Positions 860-45,371 of a DNA stretch of 64,000 bases are shown in pieces. The first letter of the stretch is position 1; each line of letters begins with the position of its first letter. Both the position numbers and the translations under genes were made by a program. Location: positions 14,260,110 through 14,324,109 of the forward strand of contig NC_134030.1 of the NCBI RefSeq assembly GCF_964204645.1, in the 5' to 3' direction. The notes below the pieces were generated by a model. It ran no database searches and was not told the DNA's origin. It was given only the letters and a program-made list of their open reading frames with translations. This DNA is from Tubulanus polymorphus. Its lineage: Eukaryota; Animalia; Nemertea.

Positions 860-3049
860 CTGGGTTTTTTTCATGACCATGCCCATACGCCATTGGAAAA
901 TATATTTTCCAATATATCATACATGTTATTGCGTTGTCGCATATTTGTTTTGAAATGAAATTCAAGGTTTATGTTACGATTTGATTAGTTAATAACGTTT
1001 GGTGGCGAATTCCAAGAACAAAATATCTTGCCATCATAAAAAGATGTACTAGTAGGAGGTTTCATGCGTTCTTGCTCAAAAGTATAATGAAATAATTCCC
1101 TGGAGGTATCCAACGGCGATGGCCTGTATTTAGTATGGTATGAATCTTTGTACTTTTTCAACACGGTGACACAAACATGTACAAATCAGTAGAAATGTTT
1201 TCCGAAGCATTGTCTCTGCATCGTTATGCAGTTATCAGGAGCATCGCTCAATGAGCACCATCACCATTCAGTATATGAAGTCCCTAAGCCTACCTTTTAT
1301 TGAGTATGTACAGAAAATAAATATTCTATACATTTTATCACCCGACCTTCCAACGGGATTGTCCTACTTCATTCTTGACCTTAACGTCAATCTTCAAAAT
1401 TAGACGCAACGGAACATGATTTCAGAATTTAGTTTCTAACGTGACTTCCCGTTTTTAGGGGAATTGGTCAATAAGCAGCTAAATTCAAACTGGGGTTTGT
1501 TGTCAAACTGGAGCCTATATAGTAAGAAAATTAATTGTAGAAAGATCGCAACTTACCTGCTTTACTCTATCCTAACGTAATCTGACAAAACCCTCGGCGA
1601 TCTCCGAGACTTCTCAGAAAGATTGAAGAAAAATACTGATCTACCCTGGTGACGAGACTAAAACTAATTGTGCCCGTTTCTCTAAGTACATATATTTATA
1701 TATTAGTCCGCTGTTATGCCGTCGTTACTCATGCAATATGACGAGAGATGCTTCATCAAAACATCAAGCTTTAGTTCCGCGCGCGTGCGAGCTCTCACTC
1801 AAACGAGTGACGTCACGCGTCCGATCGGCGGAACAGTTGATCACCTGATCGGAAACTGGGCGTATTTTACCAGTGAATGTTTTATGGAGTTGTTCGAACG
1901 AGGTTGTCGAGTATCAGCAAAGCCTGGTTGTTGATATCCCTCTATTCTTAAACTGAGTGCTCAAATGGCTCCATAAGTCTCCGTTCTCAATCATACTATA
2001 CACTTACCGGTCATGGGAAAAAATCTCAATAACTATCCAAACTTTCAGCTAGCATTCAAAATGGCGATGTGACAATCGCAAATCTATCAATATAATGTAA
2101 AAGCAGAAAAATAAGAAACAGTTATTAAATTGGAGATATCGATTCCAACAAAACGCATCCCCTTTAGAATTCTTAATCTATCAATACATTGAGTCGTTGA
2201 AAATCTGAACATTCTATCAGAAGATATCGAGATAGAGTATTTGATTATTCAGAAATTATTTTGCTATAAAAAACAATAATCAATCACCTTCGAATATCCA
2301 TTTTAATATCTAATGTCTAAGTTGAGTCAAAAATGGCATAAAAGAAGGTTATACCTAGAATAATATTTCGTCGTAAAAATAGTTTCGCGATTAGTGACTA
2401 TTTCGAACCAAACAAATCTTATATGAAATCGTCATATTTCATTTCATTTGGAGTGAGTACTAAACTGTCGGAGACTTTTCTACGTGCTAGGTGAAAGATG
2501 AAAAATGGCAATGAGTTACTTGATCAATTAGAAGTATCTGTTATTTTGGAATATGTCTTTGGAACAAAGATGTTTGAATATTCATTCTAATTTGTTCGAC
2601 ACGACTGAACAAGAATTTAACCGAAACTATGCAGAAAATTGAATGAAAAGATTTATGACATTAATCATTGTGGACGTATTTCCACCTGAAAGCATACTAG
2701 CAGAGCAAATGGGTAGAAATTGAACTGGCGATCACTCAGAAAATCACTAACGTAATTTCAAGTGAGGTAACGTTTAAGACTTAAGTGGTTGGGTATTTAA
2801 ACGGATTTCGGTCGAGCCGCTACGGAAATAGCATGATTTAATAACCAGCATTGTAAGCGTCGGTTTTCAGCCTGTAGCACTGACTCAATATTAGACGCTA
2901 AAAGTGACATTAAATATTGACTGAATGGGTTGTCGCCGATCTCTTCGCGAGAGTGTCGCCATCTCAAATAATAGAGAGGCCTGACCGCAATAGGTTCAAT
3001 ACATACAAAAACAATGTTGTTTAAATCGTCCTAATAATGAAAACTTCTT

Positions 3050-4800
3050 TTTCTTCCCAACGAACTCGCTAGAAATTGATGAAATAGTAAAGAAATTCTC
3101 TGGAAATAAAGGTATTGGCATTGACGGGATTTCTATGGAAATAGTTAAATGATGTGATTAAATATCCACTACACATATATTCTACAATAGCCTACAATCT
3201 GGAGTGGCCCCTGCTGAACTAAAAATTGCTCGGGTGTGCGCTCTGTATAAAAACGGTGAATGCTATTCCTTTGACAATTATCGACCTCTATCTATTTTAC
3301 CATGTTTTTCGAAGATACTAGAAAAACTCGTTCATAAACGTTTAGCCGCTTTTTGTGATAAATTTGAAATTATTGATCACAACCAATTTGGATTACGGAC
3401 AAACTATTCAACATCAATGGCATTAACTCGTACATCGTATAAAAGATAACAACGATTGGAATATTTTTGGATTTGTCTAAAGCTTTCGATACAGTGAATC
3501 ACGGTATACTTTTGGAAAAACTTAACCATTATGGTATTAAAGGCACGGCACTTAATTGGTTTCAAAATTACTTAGAAGGTCGCAAACAAACAGTTCAGAT
3601 TAAAGATATCAAATCTACCGCTTTAGATATTGATATTGCAGTACCACAGGGCTATATTTTAGGTTCACTATTTATATTATTATATAAATGACTGTACTTG
3701 TGCATCCAATGTCCTAAAGTTCATTTTATTTGCTAATGACACGAATGCTTTCTATATTGGTCATCTCATTGACCGCCTGAACGATACAATGAATATTGAA
3801 CTTTCGAAACTTGTTTGGTGTGTGCCAACAAGTGATCAATTAATATTAGTAAGACTTATTATATTATATTTAGTAAAACTTTTGTTGGTAATGCAAAGAT
3901 TTATATCGACGATCGTGAAATTGAACGTGTCCATACTACTAATTTTTGGGGGGTTTTAATAGATGAAAAACGGTCATGGGATGATCACATAAAATCTATA
4001 TGTAACAAATGTCACGTTTTGTTGGCGTTTTACATCGTGTTAAACACAAGTTGTCTTCCAATTCTTTACGTACCTCGTATTCATCCTTAATAGAGCCATA
4101 TCTTCAATATTGTGATATTGTTGGGGGAAGAACTTCCGATTATAAACTGCCTCCATTAACAATCCTACGAAAACGTGCAGTCCGTTTGGTCAGCAAATCC
4201 GATTGTTTAGAACACACTGATCCTATTTTTGCTCAGTTAAATATACTAAAAATTAAGAATATGAACAAACTCCAACTAGCTATTTTTGTACATAAATTCG
4301 TCAGTTCAAAATTACCTAGAACCTTTAACAACTATTGGAACTTCAATTATCAAATTCATGCTAAACCTACGCGTAATAAATTAAAATTAAGATTGCCTTA
4401 TTTTAAAACTGTAACTAGAAAATCTTCTGTTAAAATATCCGATCCCCTATCAGAATCAATTCTAACAATACAAAGCGAACCTGCCCTTAAGCGTACCTGC
4501 ATTAAATCATTATTCAGCACTTGGTAAATTTTCATTCTATACAAACCTATGTTAATGTATAAAATGTGTAAACATTTTTTGTTTCGTTTCGCCTTTAATT
4601 ACTTGTGTGCATGATGTGTGAGTGTGATGAATGTGGTGTGGGGTGTGGATGCTTCTGGGTGATATGGCCTAGACAGACCGTTTCAGTCTCTCCGTAAAGC
4701 CCCATTATACTGTTACATTTTTCTTCGTTTAATCATACTTATTATATCGTCTAATAATGTGACATTTTACTGAAAATGAATTTCAATTTCAACAAATAAA
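3050..4800 (+). mobile_element. 5'-truncated, decayed non-LTR retrotransposon (CR1/L2 group): RT domain and 3' UTR
   Basis: RT motifs across ORFs 3204-3449, 3467-3691, 4009-4527: NYRPLSILPCFSKILEK, NQFGLR, FLDLSKAFDTV, VPQGYILG, FANDT (decayed FADDT at ~3729); stops/frameshifts; TG-rich 3' UTR ending in short TTTCAA repeats. Confidence 0.9.
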
Positions 4801-7495: not shown

Positions 7496-8281
<786 letters not shown>

Positions 8282-8463: not shown

Positions 8464-8782
8464 GAGAGGAAAGCATTCTTAGCGACAATAAATAACAGAA
8501 TTAAACCAGCAAAAAACAATTTGAAATAAAAAAGTTAGTTGATGTTACAAAAGAAATTGAACATAAAATATTGAAATTAGAAACGATAAAAACTAAATAT
8601 GGAGATACAATATCAGCAAATTTAAGTTACTGTAGTGTTAGTACAACGCGAGAATTTTAAGTATTTTACCTGATAAATGGGCTTCATTGAGTACAGAGGA
8701 ATTAAAAGATTTAGAAGGATTTAATATAATCTATCATGGAAAAAATGAACACGATCATCATGATTTAGAAATTGTTGACTAA
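8464..8782 (+). pseudogene. N-truncated copy of the small Polinton protein at 27742-28069
   Basis: KAFLATINNRIKPAK..KKLVDVTKE..IKTKYGDTISANLSYC..LPDKW..HHDLEIVD, with frameshifts. Confidence 0.7.
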
Positions 8783-8943
8783 ATAAAAAACAAATAATGA
8801 AAAATAAAATAATGAAAAAAATAAAAATAATGAATATCTAGAATCAGAAATGACTTATCTGGACAATTTAATTGCTCCGCATAGATAGACAAAAGTAGTG
8901 AGATATTCAATTAATTAAAAATGAAATTACTTTTCTGCTTTTT

Positions 8944-10564
8944 AGCGAACCTAGTTGGTCTTGTGCCAATATTGCTAGAAAGTGATGTTAACGAGCTACA
9001 TTTTGAAACGGTGATAGACCCGGTCGTATTTCTTGTTGCAGATTATTCAAATAGCCTAATACTCGCTATTGTGCGAATTTCGTTGCGATGTGATTGATCT
9101 AAGCTGTAAAATTTTAGATAATTTGAAAATTTCCTTAGCTTTAATATAGTTTGACATGACCTGGAATGACCTAAGTCATGCATAATCATTAGCAGATGCG
9201 CATGCGCTTAACACTGTGTAGAATGACAGGAGGATCCTCGCTAAAATAGATCCATTTTGTAAAATATCAAGCTGTGTATTGACGATTACTGTTAAGAAAA
9301 CAAATGGCGGAAAAGCACGTTACATTTTTATGCTTTGGTCACTGACTCTTGAAATAAGAGTACCGTCGACGTCAAGATACTCGAAGAAACCGTAGCGTAT
9401 TAACTTCCACCAGTCGTCGGGTATGGTACATGTACGAGGGAGGGAGGTAAGTCTTCAGTTTCTCCTGATGAATTAACGAATCACAATGTATATCCAATAA
9501 AAAGACCTTCATTTTTTCATGACTGGACCTCGTTTGTAAAAAAAATGCCTGCTGAATCGGAATACAAACTTCTTTCAGCTATATCGTTTGCTACTATAGG
9601 TTATTAGGAGAAAAAAAATAATCTTCCACCCCTCCACTTTTTACTCAATGGATTTGATGGCCTTGCGATTGCGCAATACCGATTAATGATGGCAGCACCA
9701 GCTTGCCAATTGAGAACTCTCCACATTTGCGGCTGTCCCTGAAGCTATTTTAATAGCGAATGTGCGATTACTGAATTATTTCCGAAAAAAGTTATAGAAC
9801 ATAATTAAAGACCTGATTTAGCGATATGAACGGTGGGTTTGAATTGCTTTGTCTTCTTATCTGTCGCTACAATGCGTGTTTGTGCATGAAAACAGTTTCT
9901 TCAATGATTTTGATAGAACATTGCACAGGCGTTTAAAACATTTCTTGAGGGTGGCCAGGCTGAAATTTCGAGATGATACGAACGAACTTGTTATTTAGCG
10001 TAATTTAGCAACTCGCGATATTTGGTCATTTATTAGTTTGCTAGGGCAATGGAATACAGAAGCATCAGTAAAACATACATTTTCTCTTTTTTACCTTCAG
10101 GGCCTCTTGTTTAGGTAATGATCTGGCGAGTAGCAGTCATTAAACTTATAACAAAAATTACGACGTTCACGGGAAACCAAAACCTAGATACATGTACGAC
10201 GGAACATCTGAACTATTCAAGATTCAAGTTATTGTAAAAAAATTAGCTTGTTATTTTGCAAAAAAATAAAACATTTTATTTTATATATATGAAGTGTTAC
10301 CTCTCCATCTCACAGTTCTTTGTCAACTAAGCTTTGATTATTACCCCCCCCCCCCTCCACCCCAATTTCAAATGCAAAGTTCAATGTTACCACAGGATTG
10401 ACTGGTAAGATAAACAATACCAGACTTAATCTCTCGATGAGATCTTCCTGACCAAGTACTTATTGGGACCAGGTCAGCAGCTACTTCTTTGAAAGCATAT
10501 TTCGCTTTCTTCCTTTACTTCTCAGATTATCAAGTTGGGGAGCTTCTGGGCCATTGGTCCTTTA
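8944..10564. mobile_element. ~1.6-kb non-coding insertion into the left arm, probably Helentron/HINE-derived and composite
   Basis: Absent from the right arm; sits in a T run without TSD; begins TTTTTAGCG, ends with hairpin GGGCCATTGGTCC-TTTATTT; an internal GGGCCTCTTGTTT end-like motif near 10100. Confidence 0.6.
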
Positions 10565-10856
10565 TTTTCTAAAATATTAATCCATTTTTTATAGTGAACT
10601 TTGGAATTTCAACAGTAGTAGTTTCCGAATCATTAATATGATAAATTTTATTTGATTTTTATACCAACTACACCCAATCAAAATGAATAGAATTACAAAT
10701 CCAGCTGCAAAATATAGATATTTATCAAATATTCTATTATCAGAAGGAGTAGAAATAACAATATTTTCACCATTATCATTAACATTTTCATTATTTATTT
10801 TTTCTTTTTTAGCTTTTTTAAATTCTTTTGATTTAATTCCTAATTAGATAGACCAT

Positions 10857-11471
10857 TCAATTTGTTTCTGAGTTCTCGGTTTTTTCTTCACAATTAATTC
10901 CTTCAATTCTTCCATTTCGCTCATTTATTATACATGTAGAAAAATTTTTACTTTCAATATTTGAAAATGTTATAACTCCAATTGATAATAATGTCATAAA
11001 TCCACCTAATTGAAATGATAAATTTCCAATCCATTTATTTAATTCAGTCATAACTAAATAATAATTTTTTAAATCGAAATATAATTTATTTTCATCTTGA
11101 ATTGGTAGCATATATTTACGTAATTTACTATAACCTTTTACTACATTTTCTGATATCGCGTCATTAATTCTAGCTATTCTCGCAGTTTCATGAATCTTAA
11201 ATAATTTAATAATTTCATCTGATTTCATTGTATCTAATTCATTATAAGTTAAATTTTTACTAATAAAACTTTTACATTTCCCAGATGCAATTAATATTTC
11301 TAAGTGATGTTTGCAATAAATATAATATTCACAATTATTGTTTGTAGTAATATCATTTAAAGCACCATTATTATCTGGTGTTAATTTTGTTTCTGTTATA
11401 CCCAAATCATCCAAAGTTTTTTCAATTGGAACATCACTATTTTTAGATTTTCCTTTCTTTTCACCTCCCAT
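10857..11471 (-). CDS. Polinton hypothetical protein, 204 aa, hydrophobic C-terminal segment (intact copy in left arm)
   Basis: Open ORF with ATAAATG start; near-identical frameshifted copy at 26709-27315 (+). Confidence 0.75.
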   Translation of the reverse strand: MGGEKKGKSKNSDVPIEKTLDDLGITETKLTPDNNGALNDITTNNNCEYYIYCKHHLEILIASGKCKSFISKNLTYNELDTMKSDEIIKLFKIHETARIARINDAISENVVKGYSKLRKYMLPIQDENKLYFDLKNYYLVMTELNKWIGNLSFQLGGFMTLLSIGVITFSNIESKNFSTCIINERNGRIEGINCEEKTENSETN

Positions 11472-11494
11472 TTATATAACAAAAAATTAATTGT

Positions 11495-11780
11495 GTTGTT
11501 GCAACTGATATTTAACTAGAATGTATCTAAAAATATACTAGATTAACAAGCTAGTTGAAATATTATTGTTTCTATTTGATTTTTGTTTCAACTACCAATA
11601 ACTAAAATTTAACTAGAATGTAACTAAAAATATACTAGATTAACAAGCTAGTTGGAATATTATTGTTTTTGTTTATTTCTTGTTGAATTTTATTTGATTT
11701 TTGTTTCAACTACCAATAACTAAAATTTAACTAGAATGTCACTTAAAATATAATAGATTATCAAGATAGTTGAGTTTCGA
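11495..11780. repeat. Short tandem repeats at inner edge of left arm
   Basis: TTTAACTAGAATGTA..AAAATATACTAGATTAACAAGCTAGTTG three times; inverse of 26390-26690. Confidence 0.8.
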
Positions 11781-11971
11781 TAAATTCATATTTAAAGGGG
11801 TGTTGTAATCGAAATAGTAATTTTGACCATTTATTATTTTTCAATTTATCCATATATTTATTGTGTAAATCATGCGGAATAATATCAGTAATTGGTAAAT
11901 CAGGGTTTCAGGCCAGAGGGCGATAGGGCGACACACCACTCATCACCACAAGTAATTTATTTTCTAATAAA

Positions 11972-14900
11972 ATGGGAGACAGTGAGTACCAGACAGAAAA
12001 AAATGATGTTAATGAAAATCAATATTATTGTACATATTGTAAAAAAAAAAATTGATAAATCTCATAAAGCACGACATGAAAAAACTGCAAATCATATAAA
12101 AAATGTTATAGATTTTGAAACTCCAGAAAATTCCAATTAAAGAAAAGAACGATTAGAAAATATGAATGTGGATAAAATAAGATGTGAAGTAATGAATTTA
12201 TAGCAAAAAGGAATTATAAAAGACATCTCGAATCACAAAAACACCATCAAAATTTGAGTAAAAATGTTTTAGGAACAGATTATTTTGATGATAAACCTCA
12301 ACAAGCAAAAAACCAGTTTCAAAAACTAAATCTATTTCAAATAAACCTTACATGGAAAATGTTAGAAATTATATCGATTCACTAGAAATAAAAGATACAA
12401 TTGAAATTTTAGAAACATTACGCAGTAAAATTGGGCCTGCAGCTATTATATTTAGATTTTTTAAAGGAGCAACAATAGAAGATTATAGTAAATTTATTGA
12501 AATCATGGAAAAAATACTAGATTTGGTAACAGATGTTGAATATCCAAAAATTAGTATTTCTGGAAAAGTAAGTTTTATCAAATCAGAAGAAAAAATGGAT
12601 TATAATATTCAAACATACTCTGAAGAAATAATTTCAAAAACACAAATAAAAGAGAAATTAGAAAAAAATATTTCATGAATTTAAACGTCATATTAAGGAA
12701 AGATATTTTGAGAGTCCTGGTTTAACATTGAATGAAATTATATTTTTAGATTTCAATATTTATAATACAAAAAGGAATAAAGCATCAAAAAGTAAAACAA
12801 TGTTTAAAAATGATTCAAACTTTACCACAGAAAAGGATATTTAAGCAACAAGTTATATCAAATTACCATTTACAACAAAAGCAGTAATAAATGTTCAAAA
12901 TGAAGATAATAAATGTTTTCTATGGTCAATTATTAGTTGCTTACATCCAACAGAAGAACATGTTTATAGAATAACAGATTACCGGAAATATGAAACATTA
13001 TATAAAACTGATCAATATCCTGTAACTATAAAAATGATACCTAAAATAGAAAAAGTTGATAATTTAAAAATTAATGTATTCGAATTAATGCAATTACCAG
13101 AGACAAAAGGTGAAAACATTAAAGATTATACATTTTAACAGAATATTATGATGATGAAAATGTTATAGATTTGTTATATTACAAAAACGATGAAAATGAA
13201 CATTATATGTGGTTAAAACAAATAGATTTATTCTTTAGAAGAGGAAGTGATCATCATAATAAAATTTATCTATGTAGAAAATGTTTATCTAAATTTATTA
13301 CTGGGAATGCGTAACTAAAACATAAAGAATTATGTGATAATAAAGATTTTTGTAAATTAATAATGCCAACAAAAAAAGATTGTCAGTTGAAATTTACTAA
13401 TCATAAATTTAAAAATATTGTTCCATTTGTAATTTATTGGGATTTTGAATCGTTGAATAAAGAATTAACTGATCAAGATAGAAAAGAAATATATAATAAA
13501 AAGCAATTTTTAAAATCAATGGATTAAGGAAATGAGCTAAATGAAGATATAATTCAAGACCCACCAATTATAAATACAATTAAAAAGGTTCATCAAAGAG
13601 CTGCTGCTTATGGAATTTATATAAAATCAAATTATCCTGAATTATATGAAAGTCAATATATTTCTTTTAGAGGTGAAGATGTAGTTAATGATTTTTGTAA
13701 TAAAATAATTGAATTAGAAAAAGATTTTGCAAAATTATTAAACAAAAATAAATGTAATATCGTTATGACAAAAGAAGATGAAATTGATTTTAATTATGCA
13801 ACTCATTGTTGTTACTGTGAAAAACGTTTTTATTCATTTGATAAAAATGTTAGAGATCATGATCATTTAAATTCAGAATATCGTGGAGCTGCTCATGAAG
13901 ATTGCAATTTACAAGCTAAGAAAGTTAATTTCGTACCAATATTATTTCATAATTTATCAGGCTATGATACCCATCTATTTATAAAATAATTATCAGGAAA
14001 ATTGGGCGCAATTAATCAAGAAATAGAAGAATATAATGCTATGAATGAAGCAAATGTAAGAAAATATGATTTTAAACTATTAGCTAAAACATCTGAAAAT
14101 TATATTTCATTTCAATTTGGTTGCATTAGATTTTTAGATTCTTATAGATTTCTAACAAGTTCATTAGATAATTTAGCAAAAAGTTTAGTTGATAATGATT
14201 TTATAATGACTCGACATTATTCCCCAAATGAACAAGATTTTAAATCATTGACATATAAAGGCGCAATTCCTTTTCATTTTTCGCAATTCATTTTATAAAA
14301 CACATGATGATTTTAATGTAACAGAATTATTAAAAGAACAATTTTATGATCAATTAAAAGAGGAGTATGTGAAAGATGAAGTGTTTAATAGAACATAAAA
14401 TATTTGGAATCACTTTAAGATAAAAAATCATGGTGAATTAGTAGATTTATACTTAAAATCAGATGTTATGATATTGGCTGACATATTTGAAAATTTTAGA
14501 GAAGTTAATTTAAATCATTTTAATGTTGATCCCTGTTATTGTTATTCAAGTCCTGGTTTAACTTGGCAATGTGGTTTAAATTATACAAATGTAGAATTAG
14601 ATTTATTAAAAGAACCAGACATGGTTTTATTATTTGAAAAATCAATTAGAAGATGAAAATGATGATAAAAGTTATTGGGAAGTGCAATTATGGGTTTAAA
14701 AGATGAAGCACCAATTGGTTATTTCTTTGTAGTTGATTTAGAATATCCTGATAACATAAAGTTTAAAACAAGAAACTGACCATATTGCCCAGAACATTTA
14801 GCCGCAGATGATAGTTATTTAAGTGAATACCAGAAGAAAATAAAACCGAAAGATCATGATTTTACAGAAAAATTAATACTTAATCAAAATAATAAATACA

Positions 14901-16883
14901 ATTATATTGCTCATTATAGAATGTTAAAATCTAAAACAAGGAATGAAATTAAAGAAAGTACATAGATATATTGAATTTAATCAATCGAAGTGGTTTGAAA
15001 AATATATAGATTTTAATACTCAACAGGGAACCATATCAAAAACAGATTTTGAAAAAGATTTCTTCAAATTAATGAATAATAGTTTTTATGGAAAAACATG
15101 TGAAAATATTATAAATAGAAATGATATTGAATCAGTAAATAATTCTGAACGATTAAGACATTTACAATCAAGTCTTAGACAATTAGGAAATAAAAGATTT
15201 GAAGATTATTTAACCGCGGTAAAATTAAAAAGAACGTCAATGAAATTTAATAAACCTATATTCATTGGTTCAACTGTTTTAGAAATATCAGAATTATTAA
15301 TGTATGATTTTTATTATAATGTTTTACAACCACTCTTTGGGGAAAAGCATATTGAAATATTGTATTTTGATTCTGTAACAGCTGATACCCCAATATTATA
15401 AAAATACAATAACCAAATATTAATTAGAAGAATTTCAGAAATAAATCCAAAACAAAATGAACTTTATATTTCGTATGGTGAAAAAGAATTAATACAAATA
15501 AATGGATTAATGGATGTTTGGACAAGAAATGGATGGAAAAAATTAAAGAATATAATTACACATAAAACAAATAAAAAGATTTATAGAGTTGGAACTAAAT
15601 TAGGGTTTGTAGATGTCACTGAAGACCATAGTTTAATTAAACAAAATGGTGATGAAATAAAACCAACTGATATAAAAATTAGAGATGAATTATTACATAA
15701 AAGATTTTTCCAAAGAATGAATCATATGTCATTTGATGAAATAATTGATAACATTTATAATATAGAACCCGACACATTTGAAGAAAAAGAATATTTTATG
15801 AAAGGTTTTTTTATGGGAGATGGTTCAGCAGGTGTGTATAATTATGTTTGGGGTAATAAATATTGTTGGTATTTATGCAATCAAGATTTGAAATTGTTAG
15901 AAAGAATAAAGAAATACTGTGAAGAAGTTTATTCACATAAAACATTTAGAATCATGGATGTTATGAAATCATCAGCAGTTTATAGAATACTCGTGAATAA
16001 CCCCAAAGATTTTGCTACAAAATATAATGATGAATTCCACATTCATGCAATAGTGAAAAGTAATACTTCAACCAAAGAAAAGATAGTTCCAGATTATGTA
16101 TTAAATACAAAATATAATTTTAGCAAATGGTTCTTCATTGGATTCTATGCTGCAGATGGCACTAAAAAATTTATAAAGTATAAAAAGATAACCTTTGCAC
16201 AAAAAGGAAAAGTTGCTATATCAGGATTAAATATATTATGCAATTCATTAGGTTTTAATATGAATATTGAAGATTGATTAAATCTAAACCAAATTGCTTT
16301 AATTTAAGCCATGTAGAAAATGAGTTAACAGAAGAAGTTAAAGATTTATTTGAAATATATAACCCATGAGATTACGTTTATGATTTATCAACTGAAGATG
16401 GAACATTTAACTGTGGATTTCCATTAAAAGCCAAAAATACGGACGCCTACATACTGAAAATCAAGACAAATGACATAACAAAAGACTTAAAAACATTAAA
16501 ACATCATTTTGACTTCAGCAATTATCCAAAAGATCATGAACTATGTAGCAATGATAATAAAACAATTCCTGGTAAATTTACAGATGAATTAGGGAGGATG
16601 AAATGATTGAATTTGTTGGGATAAGAAGTAAAATGTATAGTTATAGAACAAAAGATCATGAAGCTAAAAAGTTAAAAGGAATCACAAAGCATGTGGTTGA
16701 CAAACATATAGAATTTATATTATATTAAGTGTTTACTCAACTCAATAGTTATGAAACATAAAATGAATTGTTTAAGATCACGCGATGTACATTAATGAAG
16801 TTGAAAAAACTAGCTTCAATCCATTCGACGATAAGAGATATATTTTGGATGATGGAATAAAAACATTACCTTATGGCCATTAA
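11972..16883 (+). pseudogene. pPolB: Protein-primed family B DNA polymerase (pPolB), intein-containing, disrupted
   Basis: N-terminal C2H2-like fingers; INVQNEDNKCFLWS; ExoI VIYGDFES; EndoVII-like VRDHDH..YRGAAHEDCN; ExoII FHNLSGYD; ExoIII YLKSDV; motif B FFKLMNNSFYGKT; motif C YFD|TD split by intein; PGKFTDE, RSKMYS, KLKGI, FDDKRY..TLPYGH stop; many stops/frameshifts. Inclusion of the 5' finger region in the same gene is inferred. Confidence 0.93.
15372..16438 (+). mobile_element. Intein with LAGLIDADG homing endonuclease in pPolB motif C
   Basis: Block A SVTADTPIL right after YFD; block B VDVTEDHSL; LAGLIDADG motifs YFMKGFFMGDGS and WFFIGFYAADGT; block F DYVYDLSTEDGTFNCG; block G LKAKN followed by extein TDAY. 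Confidence 0.93.
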
Positions 16884-23370: not shown

Positions 23371-24625
23371 ATGAGTGGGAGTTATATAAATCCTTCTAAG
23401 AATTCTAGAATATCTAATGCTATTAAAGCGGAGAGATCTCATATCATTACTCATAACCCTTCTAATATTAATCCTGATGAAACTTTATATGTTAGAATCC
23501 CGAGATTAAATCAAAATACTTTTTATGTTCCAAATAGTATTTATTTATCAGCTGATATAAAAGTAACTGGTCATGATAACAATTATGTTGTCGATAATGT
23601 TGGAAGATATTTGATTGAAGAATTAACTATAAAGATTGGACCAGAAACAGTTTTATCATTAGATGATTATAATTTATTTATGCATTATAAAGATTTATGG
23701 TTAGCAAAAGAAAATAGAAATAATATGATATTTCAAGGCATCCAATCAGAATACCAAAATAGATTAAGATCAGAAGCTAATGATGCAGTAGTAGATAATT
23801 TACAGATTTAGTACAGATAATTTGATAAAAAAGATTTATGGAAGCAAATATCAAATTCCATTAGAGTTTGAATTGATAGATAATAATGCACCTTTGTATA
23901 AATACGCAATTCAAGAAGATATTACATTCGAAATAACATTTGCTCCTGTTAATGAAATTGTGCTATCTAACGTTGTTAAAGATATGGGTTATAAATTATC
24001 GAATATATGTTTAGAATATGATACAGTAACTGATGAAAATATTTCAAGCATAATTCAAACTCAATACAATCAAGGATTTTCATTATTATATGATTATATT
24101 GATAAATTTAAAACTGTAACTATTAATGCAAATGATGAAATAATTAATGAGAATATTAACTTCCCAAGAAGATCTATTAAAAGTATGTTAATATTTTTTA
24201 CCATTGCAACATATTGTAATGGTGCAATAAATGATGATAATTATTATAATCCTGAAATATCAAAGGTAGAAATAACTATTGAAGGTATAGCTAATAAATT
24301 ATTTTGCCAAGGAATGAGAATGATTGATCAATGGCCAGATATTAGAAAACATTTTATGAATGAAAAAGTAAAATCATCTGAAAATTGTAATATTAATCAA
24401 AATGATTATTATACCGGCAATAAATATGCACTATGGTTAGATTTTAGAATAACAGAGGATAATTCATTACATGGTTCTGGGAAAAAACGACATAATACAA
24501 AAGATGGAATACAATTATTCATGAAAAAGAAAAAAGGAATCAAAGATTTCAAAATGCAGATTTATATTATATCTGACGCCCGATTAAATTTTATAAATTT
24601 TCAATTCGATAGTATTCAATATTAG
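23371..24625 (+). pseudogene. Major capsid protein (double jelly roll), one frameshift near 23810
   Basis: ITHNPSNINPDETLYVRIP..NVGRYLIEELTIKI..YKDLW, then NICLEYD, INENINFPRRSIK, YYNPEISKVEITIEG, ALWLDFR; ~415 aa combined; position next to integrase and ATPase. Confidence 0.72.
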
Positions 24626-24655: not shown

Positions 24656-25766
24656 ATGGGGGATAAAAAAAACTCGAAATACTGAAGAACAATATCTAAG
24701 AAATTTATATTATAATCCTGAGAGTTCGGTTGCTTATTCTTCTGTAAAAAAACATATGGAGTCAAGTCAAACACGATCACAACAATTAGATAAGATAATC
24801 CCACAAAATTGAGTTAAATATAAAGATATAAATGAATTTATGTTAGAACAACCAACATATACAACACATAAAAAAATTGTTAGAAAATATAAAACTCGTA
24901 AAACAATGGTACGTTATGTAGATCAACAGTGGCAACGAGATTTAATTGATATGAAAAATGTTAAGAAAGATAATGATGATTATTGGTGGATATTAAATAT
25001 AATTGATATTTTTAGTCGTTATGTATGGAGCTTCCCACTTTACAGAAAAGATGCTGTACAAACATCAAATGTTTTAAGAAAATTTCTTTCGGATGATAAA
25101 CTAAAACCAGAAAAAATACAATTTGATGATGGAAAAGAATTTGATAATTCACTTGTTCATGAACTCTTAGATAATCATAATATTAAATATTTTTCAACAT
25201 AATCGGATAAAAAAGCAGCAGTTGTTGAACGATTTAATAGAACATTGAGAACAAGAATGTGGAAATATTTTACAGCAAATAATACTTGAATGGATTGATG
25301 TTTTACCAAAATTGAAAAAAGGTTATAATAATTCTTATCATTCTTCTATTGGAATGAAACCTATTGGTGCTAGAAAATCTGAAAATGCTGAAATTGTTTG
25401 GATTAATTTATATTGAGCATTTCTTGTTTTGGTGAACCTAAATTTAAAGTAGGTAAAAATGTTAGAATTTATAAGTATAAAAAGATATTTGACAAAGGAT
25501 ACGATCGAAATTTTACTAGTGAAATATATAAAATAAAAAAGGTAATAATAACAAAACCATGTGTCTAAAATTAGAAGATTTAGATGGTGAAGAAGTTGAT
25601 GGATATTTTTATGAAGAAGAATTAAGTTTAAACTACTGAAAATCTAGAACAAGAATATAAAATTGAAAAAGTATTAAAAACAAAAACTGTTAATAGAAAA
25701 AAATATTCTTTAGTAAAATGGGTTGGATGGCCAGATAAATTCAATGAATGGATAATTATCGAGTAA
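24656..25766 (+). pseudogene. Retroviral-like (RVE) integrase with C-terminal chromodomain
   Basis: YYNP, QWQRDLIDM, IDIFSRY, IQFDDGKEF, VVERFNRTL, YNNSYHSSIGMKP, FKVG, FYEEEL, YKIEKVL..LVKWVGWPDKFNEWI; stops and frameshifts. Confidence 0.92.
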
Positions 25767-25782: not shown

Positions 25783-26408
25783 ATGAATAAGGAATTATTT
25801 ATATTTGAGCCTCATAATATGTTAATTTCTGGTGTAACAAATTGTGGAAAAACTAATTTTATATTGAATTTATTAGAAACTATCTATAAAAACTATTTTG
25901 ATAATATAGTATTATTTTGTCCAACATATGAATTTAATCAAACTTATGATAGAAATATAACTAGAAATAATAAATTTATTGTATCAAATCCTAAACAGTA
26001 AAAGAAAATTTAGATAATTGTATTAAAATAGCAATTGATATTTATAAAGGATCAAATACATTATTCATTATAGATGATTGTGCAAATTTACATGATTCAA
26101 AAATTAGAGATAGTGAATTATGTTATTTAGCGTTCTCTGGATGACATTTTGGGATAACAACTTGGGTTTTAAATCAAAAATATAAATGAATTGTTAAAGA
26201 TTTTAGGGAGAATATTAGATTTTTAGTATTATTCTACAATAAAGATAGGAAATCGATGAAAAATGCGCTTGAGGAAAATGATATTATTCCACATGATTTA
26301 CACAATGAATATATGGATAAATTAAAAAATAATAAAAGATCAAAATTAATATTTCGATTACAACGCCCATTTAAATATGAATTTGTTTTAACTCAACTAG
26401 CTTGTTAA
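25783..26408 (+). pseudogene. Genome packaging ATPase (A32/FtsK-like)
   Basis: Walker A ISGVTNCGKT, Walker B LFIIDD, SG*HFGITTWVLNQKY (Arg of GRH mutated to stop); frameshift near 26000. Confidence 0.9.
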
Positions 26409-26708
26409 TCCAGTATATTTTAGTCACATTCTAGTTAAATTTTAGTTATTGGCATTTCAAACAAAAAAAAATAAATAAAAACAACAATATTTTAACTAGC
26501 CTGTTAATCTAGTATATTTGTAGTTACATTCTAGTTGAATTCTAGTTATTGGTAATTTAAACAAAAATCAAATAAAATTCAACAAAAAATAAATAAAAAC
26601 AACAATATTTCAACTAGCTTGTTAATCTAGTATATTTTTAGTTACATTCTAGTTAAATTCTAGTTGAATTCTAGTTGCAACAACAAAACTAATTTGTTGC
26701 TTATATAA

Positions 26709-27315
26709 ATGGGAGGTGAAAAGAAAATAAAATCTAAAAATAGTGATGTTCCAATTGAAAAAACTTTGGATGATTTAGGTATAACAGAAACAAAATTAGC
26801 GTCAGATAATAATGGTGCTTTAAATGATATTACTACAAACAATAATTATGAATATTATCTTTATTGCAAACATCAATTAGAAATATTAATAGCAACTGGG
26901 AAATGTAAAAGTTTATTAGTAAATATTAAACTTATAATGAATTAGATACAATGAAATCAGATGAAATTATTAAATTATTTAAGATTTATGAAACTGCGAG
27001 AATAGCTAGAATTAATGATGCGATATCAGAAAATGTAGTAAAAGGTCATAGTAAATTATGTAATTATGTGCTGCCAATTCAAGATGAAAATAGATTATAT
27101 TCCGATTTAAAAATGATTATTTAGTTATGACCGAATTAAATAAATGGATAGGATATTTATCATTTCAATTAGGTGGATTTATGACGCTATTATCAACTGG
27201 AGTTATAACATTTTCAAATATCGAAAGTAAGAATTTTTCCACAATAAATGAGCGAAGTGGAAGAGGTGAAAGAATTAACTGTGAAGAAAAAACCGAGAAC
27301 TCAGAAACAAATTGA
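26709..27315 (+). pseudogene. Frameshifted copy of hypothetical protein 10857-11471
   Basis: ORFs 26709-26945 and 27127-27315 match the left copy. Confidence 0.8.
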
Positions 27316-27590
27316 ATGGTCTCGGCAATTAGGAATTAAATCACAGCAATATAAAAGCTGTAAAAGAAAAAATAAGTAATAAAAATGTTAATGAAAATGG
27401 TGAAAATATTGTTATTTCTACTCCTTCTAATAATAGAATATTTGATAAATATCTACATTTTGCAACTGGATTTGTAATTGTATTCATTTTGATTGGGTGT
27501 AGTTGGTATAAGAAATCAAATAAAATTTATGATATTGATAATTCTGAAACTACTAAAACTACCAAAATTCACAATAAAAAAATGGATTAA
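27248..27590 (+). pseudogene. Small basic Polinton protein with TM segment, frameshifted (inverse copy ~10577-10924)
   Basis: ATAAATG start; MSEVEEVKELTVKKKPRTQKQIEWSRQLGIKS..KYLHFATGFVIVFILIG. Confidence 0.55.
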
Positions 27591-27741
27591 TATTTTAGAA
27601 AAAAAGCAAAAAAAATAATTTCATTTTCAATTAATTAAATATCTCACTACTTTTGTCTATCTATGCGGAGCAATTAAATTATCCAGTGAGTCATTTCGGA
27701 TTCTTAATATTTAATTAATTTTATTATCAATTTATTTTTTT

Positions 27742-28069
27742 TAATCAACAATTTCTAAATCATGATGACCGTCTTCATTTTTCCCATGGTAAATTATTTT
27801 AAATCCTTCTAAATCTTTTAATTCCTCTGTACTCAATGAAACCCATTTATCAGGTAAAAATATTTTAAATTCTCGCGTTGTACTAACATTACAGTAACTT
27901 AAATTTGCTGATATTTTAACTCAATGTTTAGTTTTTATCTTTTCTAATTTTAAAATTTTGTGTTTAATTTCTTTTGTAACATCAACTAACTTTTTTATTT
28001 CAAATTGTTTTTTTTTGCAGGTGTAATTCTGTTATTTATTGCCGCTAAGAATGCTTTTCTATCTCCCAT
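27742..28069 (-). pseudogene. Small Polinton protein (~108 aa), beta-rich, function unknown
   Basis: MGDRKAFLAAINNRI..KKLVDVTKEIKHKILKLEKIKTK..FKIFLPDKW..KIIYHGK..LEIVD; one frameshift and one stop. Confidence 0.65.
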
Positions 28070-28153
28070 TTATTAAAAAAAAATTACTTGTGGTGATGAG
28101 CGGTGTGTCGTACTCTCGTACTCTGGTATGAAACTCTGATATTCCAATTACTG

Positions 28154-28848
28154 TTGGATATATGTCGTTCTAGATCAAAGGTCGAATGGTCATAAAAAAC
28201 TAATATTAAAAGTAATTTAAAACTATAATATATTTTCATAGCCGTGTGTATTTTATATTATAAATAAATATTTATTCTAAAATATTAATAATTTTAATTT
28301 TAAAAGCATATTGTATTAAATCATTTGGTCACGTCGCTCCGCTCCGCTCCCAATTGATTAAATTACAATACACAATAAAGAATATATTCATATAATCAAA
28401 TATATTCTAATAATAATAATTTTTCTATTATATAATCTAAAATACACACGGCTCATATATATCATAGTTTTAAATTACTTTTAATATTTGTTTTTTTATG
28501 AGCTCAATCTTTCAACCTTTAATGTAGAACAACATATATCCAATTACTCTAATATTCTTATATATGAAAATCATATTTATGAAAATTTATTATAAGAATA
28601 TATTTGATTATATGAATATATGTTATATGTAATTAAATCAATTGGGAGCGGAGCGAAGCGGAGCGAAGCGGAGCGAAGCGACGTGACCAATTGATTTTAT
28701 ACAATATGCCTTTAAAATTAAAATTGTTAATATTTTAGAATTATGATTATTATTTTTGATTAAGTAATTATTAATGATTAATTATTATTAATTATTATTT
28801 ATAATATAAAATACACACGGCTATGAAAATATATTATAGTTTTTAATT
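28154..28848. repeat. Nested AT-rich palindromes (fold-back region)
   Basis: 28154-28260 inverted at 28435-28543; 28220-28410 inverted at 28590-28848; related to 49208-49510. Confidence 0.85.
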
Positions 28849-29140
28849 AGGGTTTTCTGTTTCATCACAGAAAACCCTATTGAGATTCGCGTGTTTCTTC
28901 TTATTAGGGTTTTATGTTACATCACAGAAAACCCTATTGAGATTCGCGTGTTTCTTATTAGGGTTTTCTGTTACATCACAGAAAACCCTATTGAGATTCG
29001 CGTGTTTCTTATTATTATTAGGGTTTTCTGTTACATCACAGAAAACCATATTGAGATTCGCGTGTTTCTTATTATTAGGGTTTTCTGTTATTTCACAGAA
29101 AACCCTATTGATATCCGCGTGATTATTATTATTATTATTT
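28848..29140 (+). repeat. Five tandem copies (~55-60 bp) of the HINE-A 5' hairpin
   Basis: AGGGTTTTCTGTTACATCACAGAAAACCCTATTGAGATTCGCGTGTTTCTT(ATT)n at ~28849, 28906, 28960, 29020, 29077. Confidence 0.92.
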
Positions 29141-30464
29141 TCTTCCACACTATTTTTACCAAAAGAACATAGGCTTTGTTACCTTACCGCTGTTTCATAT
29201 ACAATCCATATAATATCGTTCAGCTCACTGAGATCTACAAATAGCCCGCGTGTTTTTTCACGAATCATCGTTACAAAAGCGCTGTCGGGCCGTAAACATC
29301 GAAAATTTAGCCCCATTCAATGGGGCGACATGTTTTTCGAGTCGTCATCCCGAAATCAACCCGCAGGCGGACTGTCACTTCGATTATCAATTCAAGTATA
29401 AATGAACTAATTTATTGCCGCAGACTTCACATTCAGTCGCGGTCTTCAAACAGTGATTTTAACAATAGCCCATTTTCCTCATTAGATCATATTACCGATA
29501 CACTGGAAATTTACTACTTTAGATTTTAAAAGCACTGTCGAGCCGTAAACATCGACGAATCGACGTGTGTTACTACATCGTCGTTCCGGGGATCAGCTGC
29601 GAGTTTCTCCTCATCATGAGAATCAAATCGAGTACAAATTAATTTATTACTACCAGTGATTTGGCTGCGGGTTTCAAGGAGTTAGTTTAACAACACCTAT
29701 TTTTCTTTACCGAATTAACCGTGTATGTACTAAGATAAATCTTTAGTGTACCGGGGAATCGTAGGCCTAAACTAAACACGCCGAAGAGATATAGCGGAGA
29801 AAAGCTGTTATGTCGACGAGGTATCAAAATAAAAGAATATATTACTTTATTCGGCCGCTGGCTTCAAACTCTATATCAATACCATCAATACTCTATATTT
29901 CCTACAGTACATACCGATCATTGTCAAATGCACAAGGTATTTACTAAATACAAGTATATAACACACTCTTATCCGTATGCTGGACTCACTTGACATTCGG
30001 AGTAAGCGTTCGCTGTGGGGGAAAGGGATCGTTCGCTGTGTCGCTTGAAGTGTTTATCGAGTTTGACGCGGCTTTAGGCCTACCGGTACTGAGCTTTACT
30101 GTATCAAACAAACACAGTACAATTGTTGCTTTTATTAACGGACTCATTGGATTGAACTTCAAACAAAATTTACGATATTTAGGTGGGTTGTTAAATTCAA
30201 TAGGCCTACGACCAATCTGTCCGGATGTTAGGCCTACGCATATACATAGGCCTACATAGGCTAGTAGCCTCTACTAGGTTAAGCGTTCGCTGTAGGGGAA
30301 AGGAGATCGTTCGCTGTGTCGCTTGAAGTGTTTATCGAGTTTTAAGCGACCTTAAGGCATTAGTATGGTGGCTGATAAGGGCCATGCGTAAAAAAAAACA
30401 CGTATATGCAAATGAGGGCGACATTATGACAAAACGACAAAACTAAAATAACGCGACAAAACAA

Positions 30465-33400
30465 TAATTTTGGTTTTGTCGCCCGCGACAATTCATTATT
30501 TCGGTTTTATCGCCCGCGACAACTCATTATTTTGATTTTATCGCCCGCGACAATTCATTAATTTGGTTTTGTCACCCGCGACAAATCAATATTTTGGTTT
30601 TGTCATCCACGACAATTCAATATTTTGGTTTTATCGCCCGCGAAAATTCATTATTTTGGTTTTATCGCCCGCGACAATTCATTATTTTGGTTTTGTCGCA
30701 CGCGACAATTCATTATTTTGGTTTTATCGCCCGCGACAATTTTTTTTTTGTCGCGGTTTTATCGCCCGGGACAATTCATTATTTTGGTTTTATCGCCCGC
30801 AACAATTCATTAGTTTTGTTTTGTCTTGTCGCCCGCGACAATTCAATATTTTGGTTTTGTCACCCGTGACAAATCAGTATTTTGGTTTTGTCACCCACGA
30901 CAATTCAATTTTTTGGTTTTATCGCCCGCGACAATTCATTATTTTGGTTTTATCGCCCACGACAATTTTTTTTTTGTCGCGGTTTTATCGCCCGGGACAA
31001 TTCATTATTTTGGTTTTATCGCCCGCAACAATTCATTAGTTTTGTTTTGTCGCCCGCGACAATTCAATATTTTGGTTTTGTCACCCGTGACAAATCAGTA
31101 TTTTGGTTTTGTCGCCCACGACAATTCAATTTTTTGGTTTTATCGCCCGCGACAATACATTAATTTGGTTTTGTCACCCGCAACAAATCAATATTTTGGT
31201 TTTGTCGCCTGCGACAATTCAATATTTTGGTTTTATCGCCAGCGACAATTGATTATTTTGGTTTTATCAACCGGAACAATTGATTATTTTGGTTTTATCG
31301 CCCGCGACAATTCAATAATTTTGTTTTGTCACCCGCGACAAATCAATATTTTGGTTTTGTCGCCCACGAAAATTCAATATTTTGGGTTTATCGCCCGCGA
31401 CAATTCATTATTTTGGTTTTATCGCCTGCAACAATTCATTGTTTTGGTTTTGTCGCACGCAACAATTCATAATTTTGGTTTTATCGCCTGCGACAATTTT
31501 TTTTTGTACCGGTTTTATCGCCTGCGACACTTCAATATTTTGGTTTTATTACCTGCGACAATTCAATATTTTGGTTTTATCGCCAGCAACATTTCATTAT
31601 TTTGGTTTTATCGCCCGCGACAATTCATTATTTTGGTTTTATCACCTGCGACAATTCAATATTTTGGTTTTATCAACCGGAACAATTGATTATTTTGGTT
31701 TTATCGCCGCGACAATTCAATAATTTTGTTTTGTCACCCGCGACAAATCAATATTTTGGTTTTCTCGCCAACGAAAATTCAATATTTTGGGTTTATCGCC
31801 CGCGACAATTCATTATTTTGGTTTTATCGCCTGCAACAATTCATTGTTTTGGTTTTGTCGCACGCAACAATTCATAATTTTGGTTTTATCGCCCGCGACA
31901 ATTTTTTTTTGTACCGGTTTTATCGCCTGCGACACTTCAATATTTTGGTTTTATCACCTGCGACAATTCAATATTTTGGTTTTATCGCCAGCAACATTTC
32001 ATTATTTTGGTTTTATCGCCCGAGACAATTCATTATTTTGGTTTTATCGCCCGCGACAATTCATTAGTTTGGGTTTGTCGCCCGCGACAATTCAATATTT
32101 TGGTTTTGTCCCACGCGACAATTCAATGTTTTTGGTTTTATCGCCTGCGACAATTCAATATTTTGGTTTTATCGCCAGCGACAATTCATTATTTTGGTTT
32201 TATCGCCAGCGACAATTCATTATTTTGGTTTTGTCGCCCGCGACAATCCTTCTTTTTAGTTTTGTCGCCCGCGACAATTCATTATTTTGGTTTTATATTT
32301 TGTTTTTGTCGCCCGCGACAATTTTTTTTTTGGTTTTGTCGCCCGCGACAATTCAATATTTTGGTTTTATCGCCCGCGATAATTCATTATTTTGGTTTTG
32401 TCGCCCGCGATAATTCATTATTACGGTTTTATCGCCCGCGACAATTCATTATTTTGGTTTTATATTTTGTTTTTGTCGCCCCTGACAATTTTTTTTGGTT
32501 TTGTCGCCCGCGACAATTCACCATTTTGGTTTTGTCGCCCGCGACAATTCATTATTTTGATTTTATCGCCCGCGACAATTTATTATTTTGGTTTTGTCGC
32601 CCCGACAATTCTTTTTTTGGTTTTGTCGCCCGCGACAATTCATGAGTTTGGTTTTTGTCGCCCGCGACAATTCAATATTTTGGTTTTATCGCCCGCGACA
32701 ATTCGTTACTTTGGTTTTATCTCCAGCGACAATTCATTATTTTGGTTTTGTCGCCCGCGACAATTTTTCTTTTTGGTTTTGTCGCCCGAGAAAATTCATT
32801 ATTTTTTTTTAATATTTTGTTTTTGTCGTCCGCGACAATTTTTTTTTTGGTTTTGTTGCCCGCGACAATTCACCATTTTGGTTTTGTCGCCCGCGACAAT
32901 TCTTTTTTGGTTTTGTCGCCCGCGACAATTCATTAGTTTGGTTTTGTCGCCCGCGACAATTCAATATTTTGTTTTTGTCGCCCGCGACAATTCAATATTT
33001 TGGTTTTATCGCCCGCGACAATTCATTACTTTGGTTTTATCTCCAGCGGCAATTCATTATTTTGGTTTTGTCGCCCGCGACAATTTTTTTTTTGGTTTTG
33101 TTGCCCGCGACAATTAATTATTTTGGTTTAATCGCCCGCGACAATTCAATATTTTCGTTTTATCGCCCGCGATAATTCATTATTTTGGTTTTATCGTCCG
33201 CGACAATTCATTATTTTGGTTGTGTCGCCCGAGACAATTCATTATTTTGGTTTTATCGCCAGTGACAATTCATTATTTTGGTTTTATCGCCCACGACAAT
33301 TCACCATTTTGGTTTTGTCCCGTGGACAATTCACCATTTTGGTTTTGTCGCCCGCGATAATTCATTATTTTGGTTTTGTCGCCCGCGACAATTCATTAGT

Positions 33401-34225
33401 TTGGTTTTGTCTCCCGCGACAATTCAATATTTTGGTTTTATCGCCCGCGACAATTCATTACTTTGGTTTTATCTCCAGCAACAATTCATTATTTTGGTTT
33501 TGTCGCCCGCGACAATTCATTATTTCGGTTTTATATTTTGTTTTTGTCGCCCGCGACAATTCATTATTTTGGTTTTATTTTTTTTTTGTCACCCGCGAAA
33601 ATTCATTATTTTGGTTTTATCGCACGTGACAATTAAATATTATCATTTTGTCGCCCGAGAGAATTCATTATTTTGGTTTTATCGCCCGCGACAATTCATT
33701 ATTTTGGTTTTGTCGCCCGCGAAAATTCATTATTTTGGTTTTATCGCACGTGACAATTAAATATTATGTTTTTGTCGCCCGAGAGAATTCATTATTGTGG
33801 TTTTATCGCCTGCGACAATTCATTAGTTTGGTTTTATCGCCCGCGACAATTCATAAGTTTGGTTTTTTCGCCCGCGACAATTCAATATTTTGGTTTTATC
33901 GCACGTGACAATTAAATATTATGTTTTTGTCGCCCGAGAGAATTCATTATTGTGGTTTTATCGCCTGCGACAATTCATTAGTTTGGTTTTATCGCCCGTG
34001 ACAATTCATTAGTTTGGTTTTTTCGCCCGCGACAATTCAATATTTTGGTTTTATCGCCCGCGACAATTCAATATTTTTGTTTTATCGCCCGCGACAATTC
34101 ATAGTTTGGTTTTATCGCCCCCGACAATTCATTAGTTTGGTTTTGTCGCCCGTGACAATTCAATATTTTCGTTTTATCACCCGCGACAATTCATTAGTTT
34201 GGTTTTGTCGCCCGCGACAATTCTT
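30465..34225. repeat. 31-bp minisatellite, ~120 units
   Basis: Consensus TTTTGGTTTT(A/G)TCGCCCGCGACAATTCATTA. Confidence 0.97.
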
Positions 34226-34226
34226 T

Positions 34227-35657
34227 TTCAGTCCACTTGGGACTTTAGTCCCAGCGGGCTATTGCGTTCACTTTTCGTCCGTCCGTCCGTCCGTCCATAG
34301 ACGGAATCCAGTTATTTCGGGAAGTTTTGAAGACGCTTCAAGGTAATGTCTTGATATTTGGTTTATACATGTATCTACCGGTACCCTAGACACATCATCA
34401 GCCCAAAAACCGGCCCTGTCAGATTCAAGATGGTCGACTGGCAGCCATTGTTGTTTGCCATAATCAGCACTTCTTAAACATTTTCGAAGTTTTCGTGGGA
34501 AATTTTGAAGACGCTTTGATCAATTACCTTGATCTTTCGTTTATATTTGAATCTACCAAAGGCCCATCAGCATAAGAAAATTGGGTTGATCTGACTCAAG
34601 ATGGCCGTCCTATGACCTTTTTAGTGCCCAAAAATGTCAATTTTGGCCAGAATTCTAGGTCCTGTAGCTTCCTGCTGGTTTGCCATTTCTCATTGCAATT
34701 GCTGATGGGTATTCTTTAGAGAGGGATGTTTTATACCTGGGACAGGTATTTGGATCAGCCAATTATGACGCAATTGGCGGCCATCTTGGTGTCATCAGTA
34801 CTCATTCGTAGGTGGGAAAAAGTTTTTCCACATTAAATTGATACCTAAGGATATTGTGTTACTATATTCAATTGGAAAGTTGTAGCCCATAACGTGTTCT
34901 ATGATTTTGGTGAGTTTCAAGGTCATTGGTTTTTGTATGTGGCCATCAGGGGGCGTTGAATAATACAATAACTTAGTATCGCTATATTATATTTGTACCA
35001 AGGCATATTTTGTTACCATGATCAATTGCAAAGTTGTAGTTCATGACATCGTCTATGATTGTGGTGAGTTTTTAAGGACATTAGTTAATCCATATAGTCA
35101 CCAGGGGGCGTTGAATAGTAGAAAAGCTTAGTTTTTCCTTATTAGATTGGTACCTAGGCATAGTTTGTTACCATGATCCATTGTTAAGTTGTAGTTCATG
35201 ACATCGTCAATGATTGTAGTGAGTTTTTAAGGACATTAGTTATTCCATATAGTCACCAGGGGGCGCTGAATAGTAGAATGGCTTAGTATTCCCTTATTTA
35301 GTAGGCTTAGTATTTCCTTATATTTTGTTACTATGATCAATTGCAAAATTGTATTTCATGACATGTACTACGATTGTGGTGAGTTTTAAGGTCACTGGGT
35401 TTTGCATCTGGTCACCAGAGGGCGTTGAATAGTAGAATAACTTAGTATTTCCATATTAAATTGGTAACGAGGCATATTTTATTATCACAATCAATTACAA
35501 AATCATAGCTGCTCACATGTTCTATGATTGTGGTGGGTTTCAAGGTCATTGGTTTTTGTATATGGTCACTAGAGGGCGTTATGTATTTAAATTGTTAGAT
35601 AGTTGAGCATTTGAGACCACTTCCCAAGTGAGCATGGTGTCCCTGGACCCCTAGTTT
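34227..35657 (+). mobile_element. Nested HINE-B copy 1 with ~155-bp internal repeats
   Basis: 5' CACTTGGGA/3' TCCCAAGTG subterminal IRs, 5' hairpin TGGGACT-TT-AGTCCCA, (GTCC)n, 3' hairpin GGTGTCCCTGGACCCC-TAGTTT; inserted in a T run. Confidence 0.85.
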
Positions 35658-35955
35658 GGTTTTGTCGCCCGCGACAGTTCATTATTTTGGTTTTGTCGCA
35701 CGCAACAATTCATTATTTAGTTTTTGCCGTCCGCGACAATTCATTATTTTGGTTTTATCGTCCGGGACGATTCAATAATTTGGTTTTAACGCCCGCGACA
35801 ATTCATTATTTTGGTTTTATCGCCCGCGACAATTCATTATTTTGGTTTTATCGCCCGCGACAATTCATTATTTTTGTTTTGTCACCCGTTACATTTCAAT
35901 ATTTTGGTTTTGTCACCCGTGACAATTCATAATTTTGGTTTTGTCGCCCGTGGTT
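35658..35955. repeat. 31-bp minisatellite
   Basis: Same consensus. Confidence 0.95.
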
Positions 35956-39045: not shown

Positions 39046-39046
39046 T

Positions 39047-45370: not shown

Positions 45371-45371
45371 T

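Follow-up and report, generated by a model that had tools for sequence, protein, structure and literature searches.

The locus described here raises the question of whether the polymerase gene of a Polinton, on what appears to be an animal chromosome, can host an intein at its catalytic centre, from where such an intein would have come, and whether its family still moves. It lies in a stretch of 64,000 nucleotides (the window, to which all coordinates refer), for which a first-pass annotation had proposed a homing-endonuclease intein within motif C of a protein-primed Polinton polymerase (pPolB). We consider it quite probable, for the reading as a whole, that this is a decayed pol-c intein in what is likely an animal host, and that a single transfer from a giant-virus-type PolB likely brought its family into Polintons, where it has likely been homing ever since.

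The intein and the Polinton that carries it

The insert of 1067 nt at 15372-16438 lies between EILYFD, which ends at 15371, and TDAYILKIK, which begins at 16439, exactly as annotated. Its removal was said to rebuild the YxDTD motif C, and it does so: the alignment of intein-less pPolBs runs up to 15374 and resumes from 16436, contiguously and with zero residues missing. Intein blocks A, B and F, the terminal Asn, Thr+1 and both LAGLIDADG motifs were all located (Table 1), with block F (YVYDLST) at 16373-16393 and the intein end (KAKN) at 16427-16438. In a profile search with the first 301 intein codons, the stop being translated as X, the window intein exceeded the cut-offs of both TIGR01445 intein_Nterm (25.4 bits; cut-off 24.5) and LAGLIDADG_3 (24.7; cut-off 22.5), in agreement with the Hint and LAGLIDADG assignments, and on this partial piece it matched Intein_splicing below the cut-off of that profile (E 2e-4). 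PF14890 was above its cut-off in the related protein P0011 and below it in the window piece and in P0010, P0012, P0013 and P0264. The segment 15372-16438 is confirmed as a LAGLIDADG intein at the pol-c site (YxD/TD, the slash marking the insertion point) of a Polinton pPolB; the annotated site is borne out by the YxD/TDS position and by kinship with other pol-c inteins.

The annotation had also remarked on a penultimate Lys instead of His. The residue was read correctly, but it is not an oddity: among 272 delimited inteins this position is His in 137 and Lys in 83, and we rejected it as an anomaly of this intein. A hedgehog-type Hint was rejected as well, since the insert has an endonuclease and is followed by a C-extein, and since exact empty alleles exist.

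The copy in the window is dead and can neither splice nor home, because it contains two stops and a frame change and sits in a badly decayed polymerase. The in-frame stops at 15399 and 16367 are present as claimed. A further stop, at 16275, closes the first intein frame where a net change of frame falls (near 16270-16280); the annotated 1-nt frameshift near 16275 therefore holds as a frame change, the size of which is not fixed by the window alone. The window intein has no open reading frame, while its relatives do. In run X5 of organism A (described below), the break near 16270 was missing from 97 of 121 reads of other copies, and the stop at 16367 from 119 of 170. The host polymerase, on the state of which the annotation was silent, is broken at many places, and a stretch near 14650-14680 is missing.

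The decayed Polinton corresponds to the AT-rich part of the window between about 11.9 and 28.2 kb, and the annotated Polinton host is corroborated by the presence of a pPolB, an rve integrase and an A32 ATPase in the same element. An adenain-type protease was searched for among the longer ORFs of the element and gave no Pfam match. The N-extein showed 40-75% identity by segment to the intein-less relatives P0163, P0164 and P0166 (tblastn), and the DNA_pol_B_2 profile matched at 14928-15371 (E 2e-4). The pPolB relatives match PF03175 only weakly (E 1e-13 to 1e-18), from which we infer that the window polymerase belongs to the divergent 'Beta' PolB class. The Endonuclease VII-like insert has no Hint domain and also occurs in intein-less relatives (PF02945, E 1.5e-6 in P0150).

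The 97-bp inverted repeat is likely the inner remnant of the terminal inverted repeats. The left end of the element is rearranged: an inverted copy of the right-end genes 26279-28063 (86-87%) takes its place, and no target-site duplication was identified at the ends of the element. The duplicate consists of 8464-8943 and 10562-11887, split by a 1.6-kb insert (8944-10561). The inverted arms 8464-11887 and 26279-28063 were rejected as true terminal repeats, because genes lie in them. At the right end, an imperfect palindrome of about 700 bp was observed (28154-28849), and a related palindromic piece (76%) lies at 49206-49511. Beside this second palindrome, an ORF is present in two tandem copies (89%) on the minus strand (47219-48741); it has no significant Pfam match, and its motifs are ones that we take to be zinc-finger-like and HNH-like.

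Table 1. Coordinates of the intein, the interrupted polymerase and other parts of the decayed Polinton (window positions)
Feature	Position	Strand	Remarks
97-bp inverted repeat, left	11886..11982	.	84.5% versus 28059-28153
N-terminal extein of Polinton pPolB	12045..15371	+	decayed, many stops and frame changes, start not fixed
Endonuclease VII-like (HNH) insert within polymerase	13780..13914	+	PF02945, E 0.021
Intein, Hint and two-motif LAGLIDADG endonuclease	15372..16438	+	motif C, pol-c site; broken copy
Intein block A, SVTADTPIL, Ser1	15372..15398	+	
Intein block B (TxxH), VTEDH	15615..15629	+	
LAGLIDADG motif 1, KGFFMGDG	15801..15824	+	acidic residue retained
LAGLIDADG motif 2, IGFYAADG	16137..16160	+	acidic residue retained
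Intein blocks F and G (YDL; Lys-Asn end), then Thr+1	16373..16438	+	
C-terminal extein of polymerase	16439..16880	+	decayed
Likely major capsid protein, two frames	23371..24625	+	Capsid_N, E 0.0011, below cut-off
Retroviral-type integrase, piece	24813..25202	+	rve, E 6e-10
A32-type packaging ATPase, pieces	25783..26408	+	Pox_A32, E 1e-6 on 25783-26001
97-bp inverted repeat, right partner	28059..28153	.	

Intact relatives and empty alleles

The closest matches of the intein were P0010 (61%), P0011 (48%) and P0012 (46%), all complete, open pPolBs with an intein, and the partial P0013 (45%); below these came inteins of RNA-primed PolBs, none above 44%. An extein search yielded 118 more pPolBs, three of which bore an intein (P0264, whole, and P0194 and P0251, incomplete), which makes P0010, P0011, P0012 and P0264 the complete open proteins; the intein was absent in 60 additional cluster members. 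Ser1, VTEDH, both LAGLIDADG acids, the Asp of block F, the Asn and Thr+1 were retained in each complete pPolB intein that was checked (13 out of 13).

In the AlphaFold model of P0013, a relative with an intact intein, the intein showed a pLDDT of about 80-97 in most blocks, and the best Foldseek matches were the TliVMA, PhoVMA, PI-PfuI and PI-SceI inteins (E 6e-16 to 1e-8). The predicted structure of the P0013 intein thus matches the Hint/LAGLIDADG intein fold. Folding of P0013 without an alignment gave a pLDDT of 33, and an alignment-based PDB sequence search returned polymerases only, among the best 60 of 116 matches.

The annotation had predicted that multicopy Polintons would supply intein-less polymerase targets; these were found both in databases and in reads of organism A, and intein-plus and intein-minus alleles coexist in near-identical polymerases. 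Among the 15 members listed of the 136 in the P0011 cluster, 7 carried the intein, 6 were empty and 2 ended short of the site; the N-exteins in this cluster were 94-99.9% identical. The contigs that carry them measure between 57 kb and 1 Mb, which far exceeds the length of a Polinton. In the P0013 cluster (15 of 121 members listed), 5 plus alleles and 1 empty allele with identical flanks were observed, the other listed members not spanning the intein site.

The read runs of organism A had 21-29% of sampled words in common with the window, which indicates that organism A is the host or a close relative. In run X5, intein depth was about 160-260 in 1,934 million letters of reads; depth itself is not a copy number, and for any genome of at least 100 Mb it corresponds to about 10 or more intein copies. 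Empty sites were present in the same organism: 176 reads left the intein-end side at 16448 for N-extein sequence, which is the exact empty site, and an X1 contig joined 15371 to 16476 with exactly 37 letters, as an empty site predicts. The window intein is one of a family of intact and empty alleles, and not an isolated case.

Origin and spread of the intein family

The annotation had derived the intein from that of an RNA-primed viral PolB, and the trees agree with this. In a FastTree analysis of 164 inteins (103 having been dropped by length and 11 as near-duplicates), the 12 Polinton inteins formed a single clade with a support of 0.98, and in IQ-TREE this clade received an SH-aLRT of 99 in a quick tree of 54 rows and supports of 100/99 in a careful tree of 24 rows. 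It was nested among inteins of RNA-primed, giant-virus-like PolBs; its sister consisted of four long-branch rows in FastTree and was an open fork in IQ-TREE. Among the metagenome intein loci, 76 out of 80 were RNA-primed PolBs and none was a pPolB, and the 57 ORFs from 8 scanned metagenome loci included PCNA, D5 primase-helicase, A32 ATPase and topoisomerase II, so that the neighbouring genes on the donor side appear to be as in giant viruses. The simplest reading is a single entry into Polintons from a giant-virus-type PolB; the direction, like the donor, is deduced, since intein diversity is far greater outside Polintons than within them. The same intein family was also observed in type II topoisomerases at D/TDG (15 of the 272 inteins; P0069, P0071, P0074, P0081, P0113 and others), and the occupation of this site suggests that the family jumps between genes with a DTD-like target.

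Class-1 splicing and homing via double-strand break repair are established processes (PMC7765530 and PMC10710043, available text). In an intact precursor, class-1 splicing through Ser1, TxxH, the terminal Asn and Thr+1 would restore YxDTD; once released, the endonuclease would cleave empty polymerase genes at this motif, and repair off the intein-bearing copy would insert the intein together with a few flanking codons. Imprecise loss from this active-site position would presumably be lethal to the element. Intact copies are predicted to splice, cut and home, and the coexistence of intact and empty versions makes it likely that the intein spreads by copying into empty polymerase genes.

The flanks of the intein are consistent with such copying. 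Between the 7 plus and 6 empty alleles of the P0011 family there are 10 fixed differences, all of them at codons -7 to +44; the remaining 1,034 N-extein positions show none. The differences at -7, -6 and -2 agree with carrier P0251, and the ones at +4, +8 and +9 with carriers P0003 and P0006; these three carriers belong to one sister subfamily, the extein of which is about 74% identical to that of the P0011 family. This tract is the pattern expected of co-conversion in homing, although selection for splicing could also explain it. Moreover, P0012 belongs to another polymerase class: its extein is 21-26% identical to those of the other carriers and its intein 42-49%, and the latter was nested within the Polinton clade (AU p 0.046, which is borderline).

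Homing might be confined to free, replicating Polinton genomes, during co-infection or between excised copies, with the chromosomal copies as passive records. We give this somewhat less than an even chance, since Polintons possess virion genes, the window copy is dead and the data are silent on where recombination occurred; what speaks against it is that plus and empty alleles, intact and 98-99.9% alike, occur on many long contigs, apparently of one assembly or few, so that a common nucleus is likely for targets and donors. IMG/VR was scanned with both P0010 and P0013 and returned no relative, a weak point in the same direction. A more far-reaching proposal is that the family resides in animal chromosomes and is driven by its endonuclease between germ-line Polintons, across subfamilies and classes, and that exposed lineages alter their catalytic motif. 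We hold it only tentatively, as a possibility that falls a little short of the balance. Motif C was DTDS in all 37 empty polymerases of the intein-free clade, and in 43 out of 68 of those in intein-exposed clades, the remaining 25 (within P0158-P0275) having DCDS, DTDA or DTDC; since the rows are related, these variants are no more than a lead on resistance to homing.

One ancient invasion followed by mostly vertical descent, repeated precise loss and little present homing appears improbable. The separate intein and extein trees that had been called for agree in outline, P0012 apart, which vertical descent with many losses would match too: P0013 pairs with P0264, the window with P0010, and P0194 with P0011 in both trees. 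Intein and extein identities are also of similar size (63 versus 57, 58 versus 54 and 64 versus 60%). However, the carriers are scattered over the extein tree (117 rows, 10 others in which the site was not located having been left out): the 8 intein carriers require 7 changes, no fewer than shuffled labels, which gave values as low as 7 in 66 of 500 shuffles. Precise loss would be required in 109 of the 117 rows, and vertical descent would leave unexplained the presence of the intein in the polymerase class of P0012, the flank tract of the P0011 family and the endonuclease motifs retained in 13 out of 13 inteins. With homing as the preferred reading, the outline agreement of the trees indicates that the invasion is old and that transfers have mostly been between near kin.

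Host genome and comparison with known systems

To judge from the flanking elements, the host is very probably an animal. No host gene was found in the window, and the named relatives of the polymerase are from two corals (38-42% identity, without the intein). A decayed LINE reverse transcriptase was observed at 3000-4500, presumably CR1/L2-like by its motifs, as well as a (TTGCTG)131 array at 7496-8281 and satellites of 31 bp and 155 bp in 30452-46858. An LTR element at 49652-57626, the LTRs of which (49652-50110 and 57169-57626) are 97.6% identical, encodes gag, a protease and an F-type env with a furin site and a fusion-peptide-like stretch; no reverse transcriptase or integrase ORF was seen in it, and it is possibly a non-autonomous errantivirus-like element. 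Its env ORF matched Baculo_F weakly (E 0.019) and had no significant PDB match. According to the available text of PMC13524379, env-carrying Ty3/gypsy elements occur across invertebrates.

That the host is instead a protist, an alga or a contaminant, and the intein part of an endogenous virus of a microbial eukaryote, is the least probable alternative and very unlikely: the window has no host gene and intein-bearing viral polymerases lie on nuclear scaffolds in algae and a labyrinthulomycete (PMC10710043, available text), but the LTR element is of the invertebrate type just cited, the LINE, the satellites and the coral relatives also argue against it, and the Atlas look-alikes, with scores below 0.9 and thus leads only, are mostly Arthropoda and Mollusca.

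If the preferred reading of an animal host with homing is true, animal genomes can sustain protein splicing and homing where a multicopy element offers empty targets. The Polinton intein would also record an exchange of genes between Polintons and giant viruses, in support of the idea that both share cells, and since plus and empty alleles coexist, existing assemblies can be used to measure the homing rate, the tract length and resistance. In surveys, the inteins of eukaryotes are assigned to fungi, algae, protists and large DNA viruses, and not to animal nuclear DNA (PMC5784728, PMC7765530 and PMC10710043, as far as available). The annotation knew of no description of this case; full-text searches of openly accessible papers gave no report of an intein in either a Polinton polymerase or animal nuclear DNA, and an earlier note in a supplement, Repbase or a subscription journal is possible.

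The Polintons/Mavericks with the divergent 'Beta' PolB class (PMC8502044) share with the window element a pPolB, an integrase, an ATPase and, probably, a capsid-like gene; the available text of that paper does not mention an intein, whereas the window element has one. HNH and VSR inserts in Polinton pPolBs (PMC10748475, PMC11161782) are, like the window intein, endonuclease domains in Polinton polymerases, but the text available mentions neither a Hint domain in them nor a position at motif C, and the window polymerase carries an HNH-like insert separate from its intein. PMC11161782 suggests, in its available part, that these inserts derive from intein invasions, and cites for this PMC10748475, in the main text of which, as available, the words 'intein' and 'LAGLIDADG' occur 0 times; the Polinton intein is a concrete case for that suggestion.

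In microbial eukaryotes, inteins lie in nuclear or endogenised-viral DNA polymerases (examples are pol delta of Chloropicon primus, and Klebsormidium and Tetrabaena; PMC10710043); viruses are their likely carriers, as here, and the C. primus intein protein (match P0070, 31%) is of the same family as the window intein. Those inteins, in the available text, are from algae and protists and in RNA-primed polymerases, with no Polintons; the words 'animal' and 'metazoa' occur 0 times in its main text. The pol-c inteins of archaeal and giant-virus PolBs, such as the Mimivirus PolB (PMC549080, available text), have the same YxD/TDS site, Ser1, Asn and Thr+1, and a LAGLIDADG domain, and many metagenome pol-c inteins are 27-45% identical to those of Polintons. 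In contrast, the Polinton inteins form a clade of their own with a GFPL end motif, and their host is a protein-primed polymerase (PF03175) in a multicopy integrated element. The pol-c intein allele is already known; what is new is the Polinton polymerase as a class of host.
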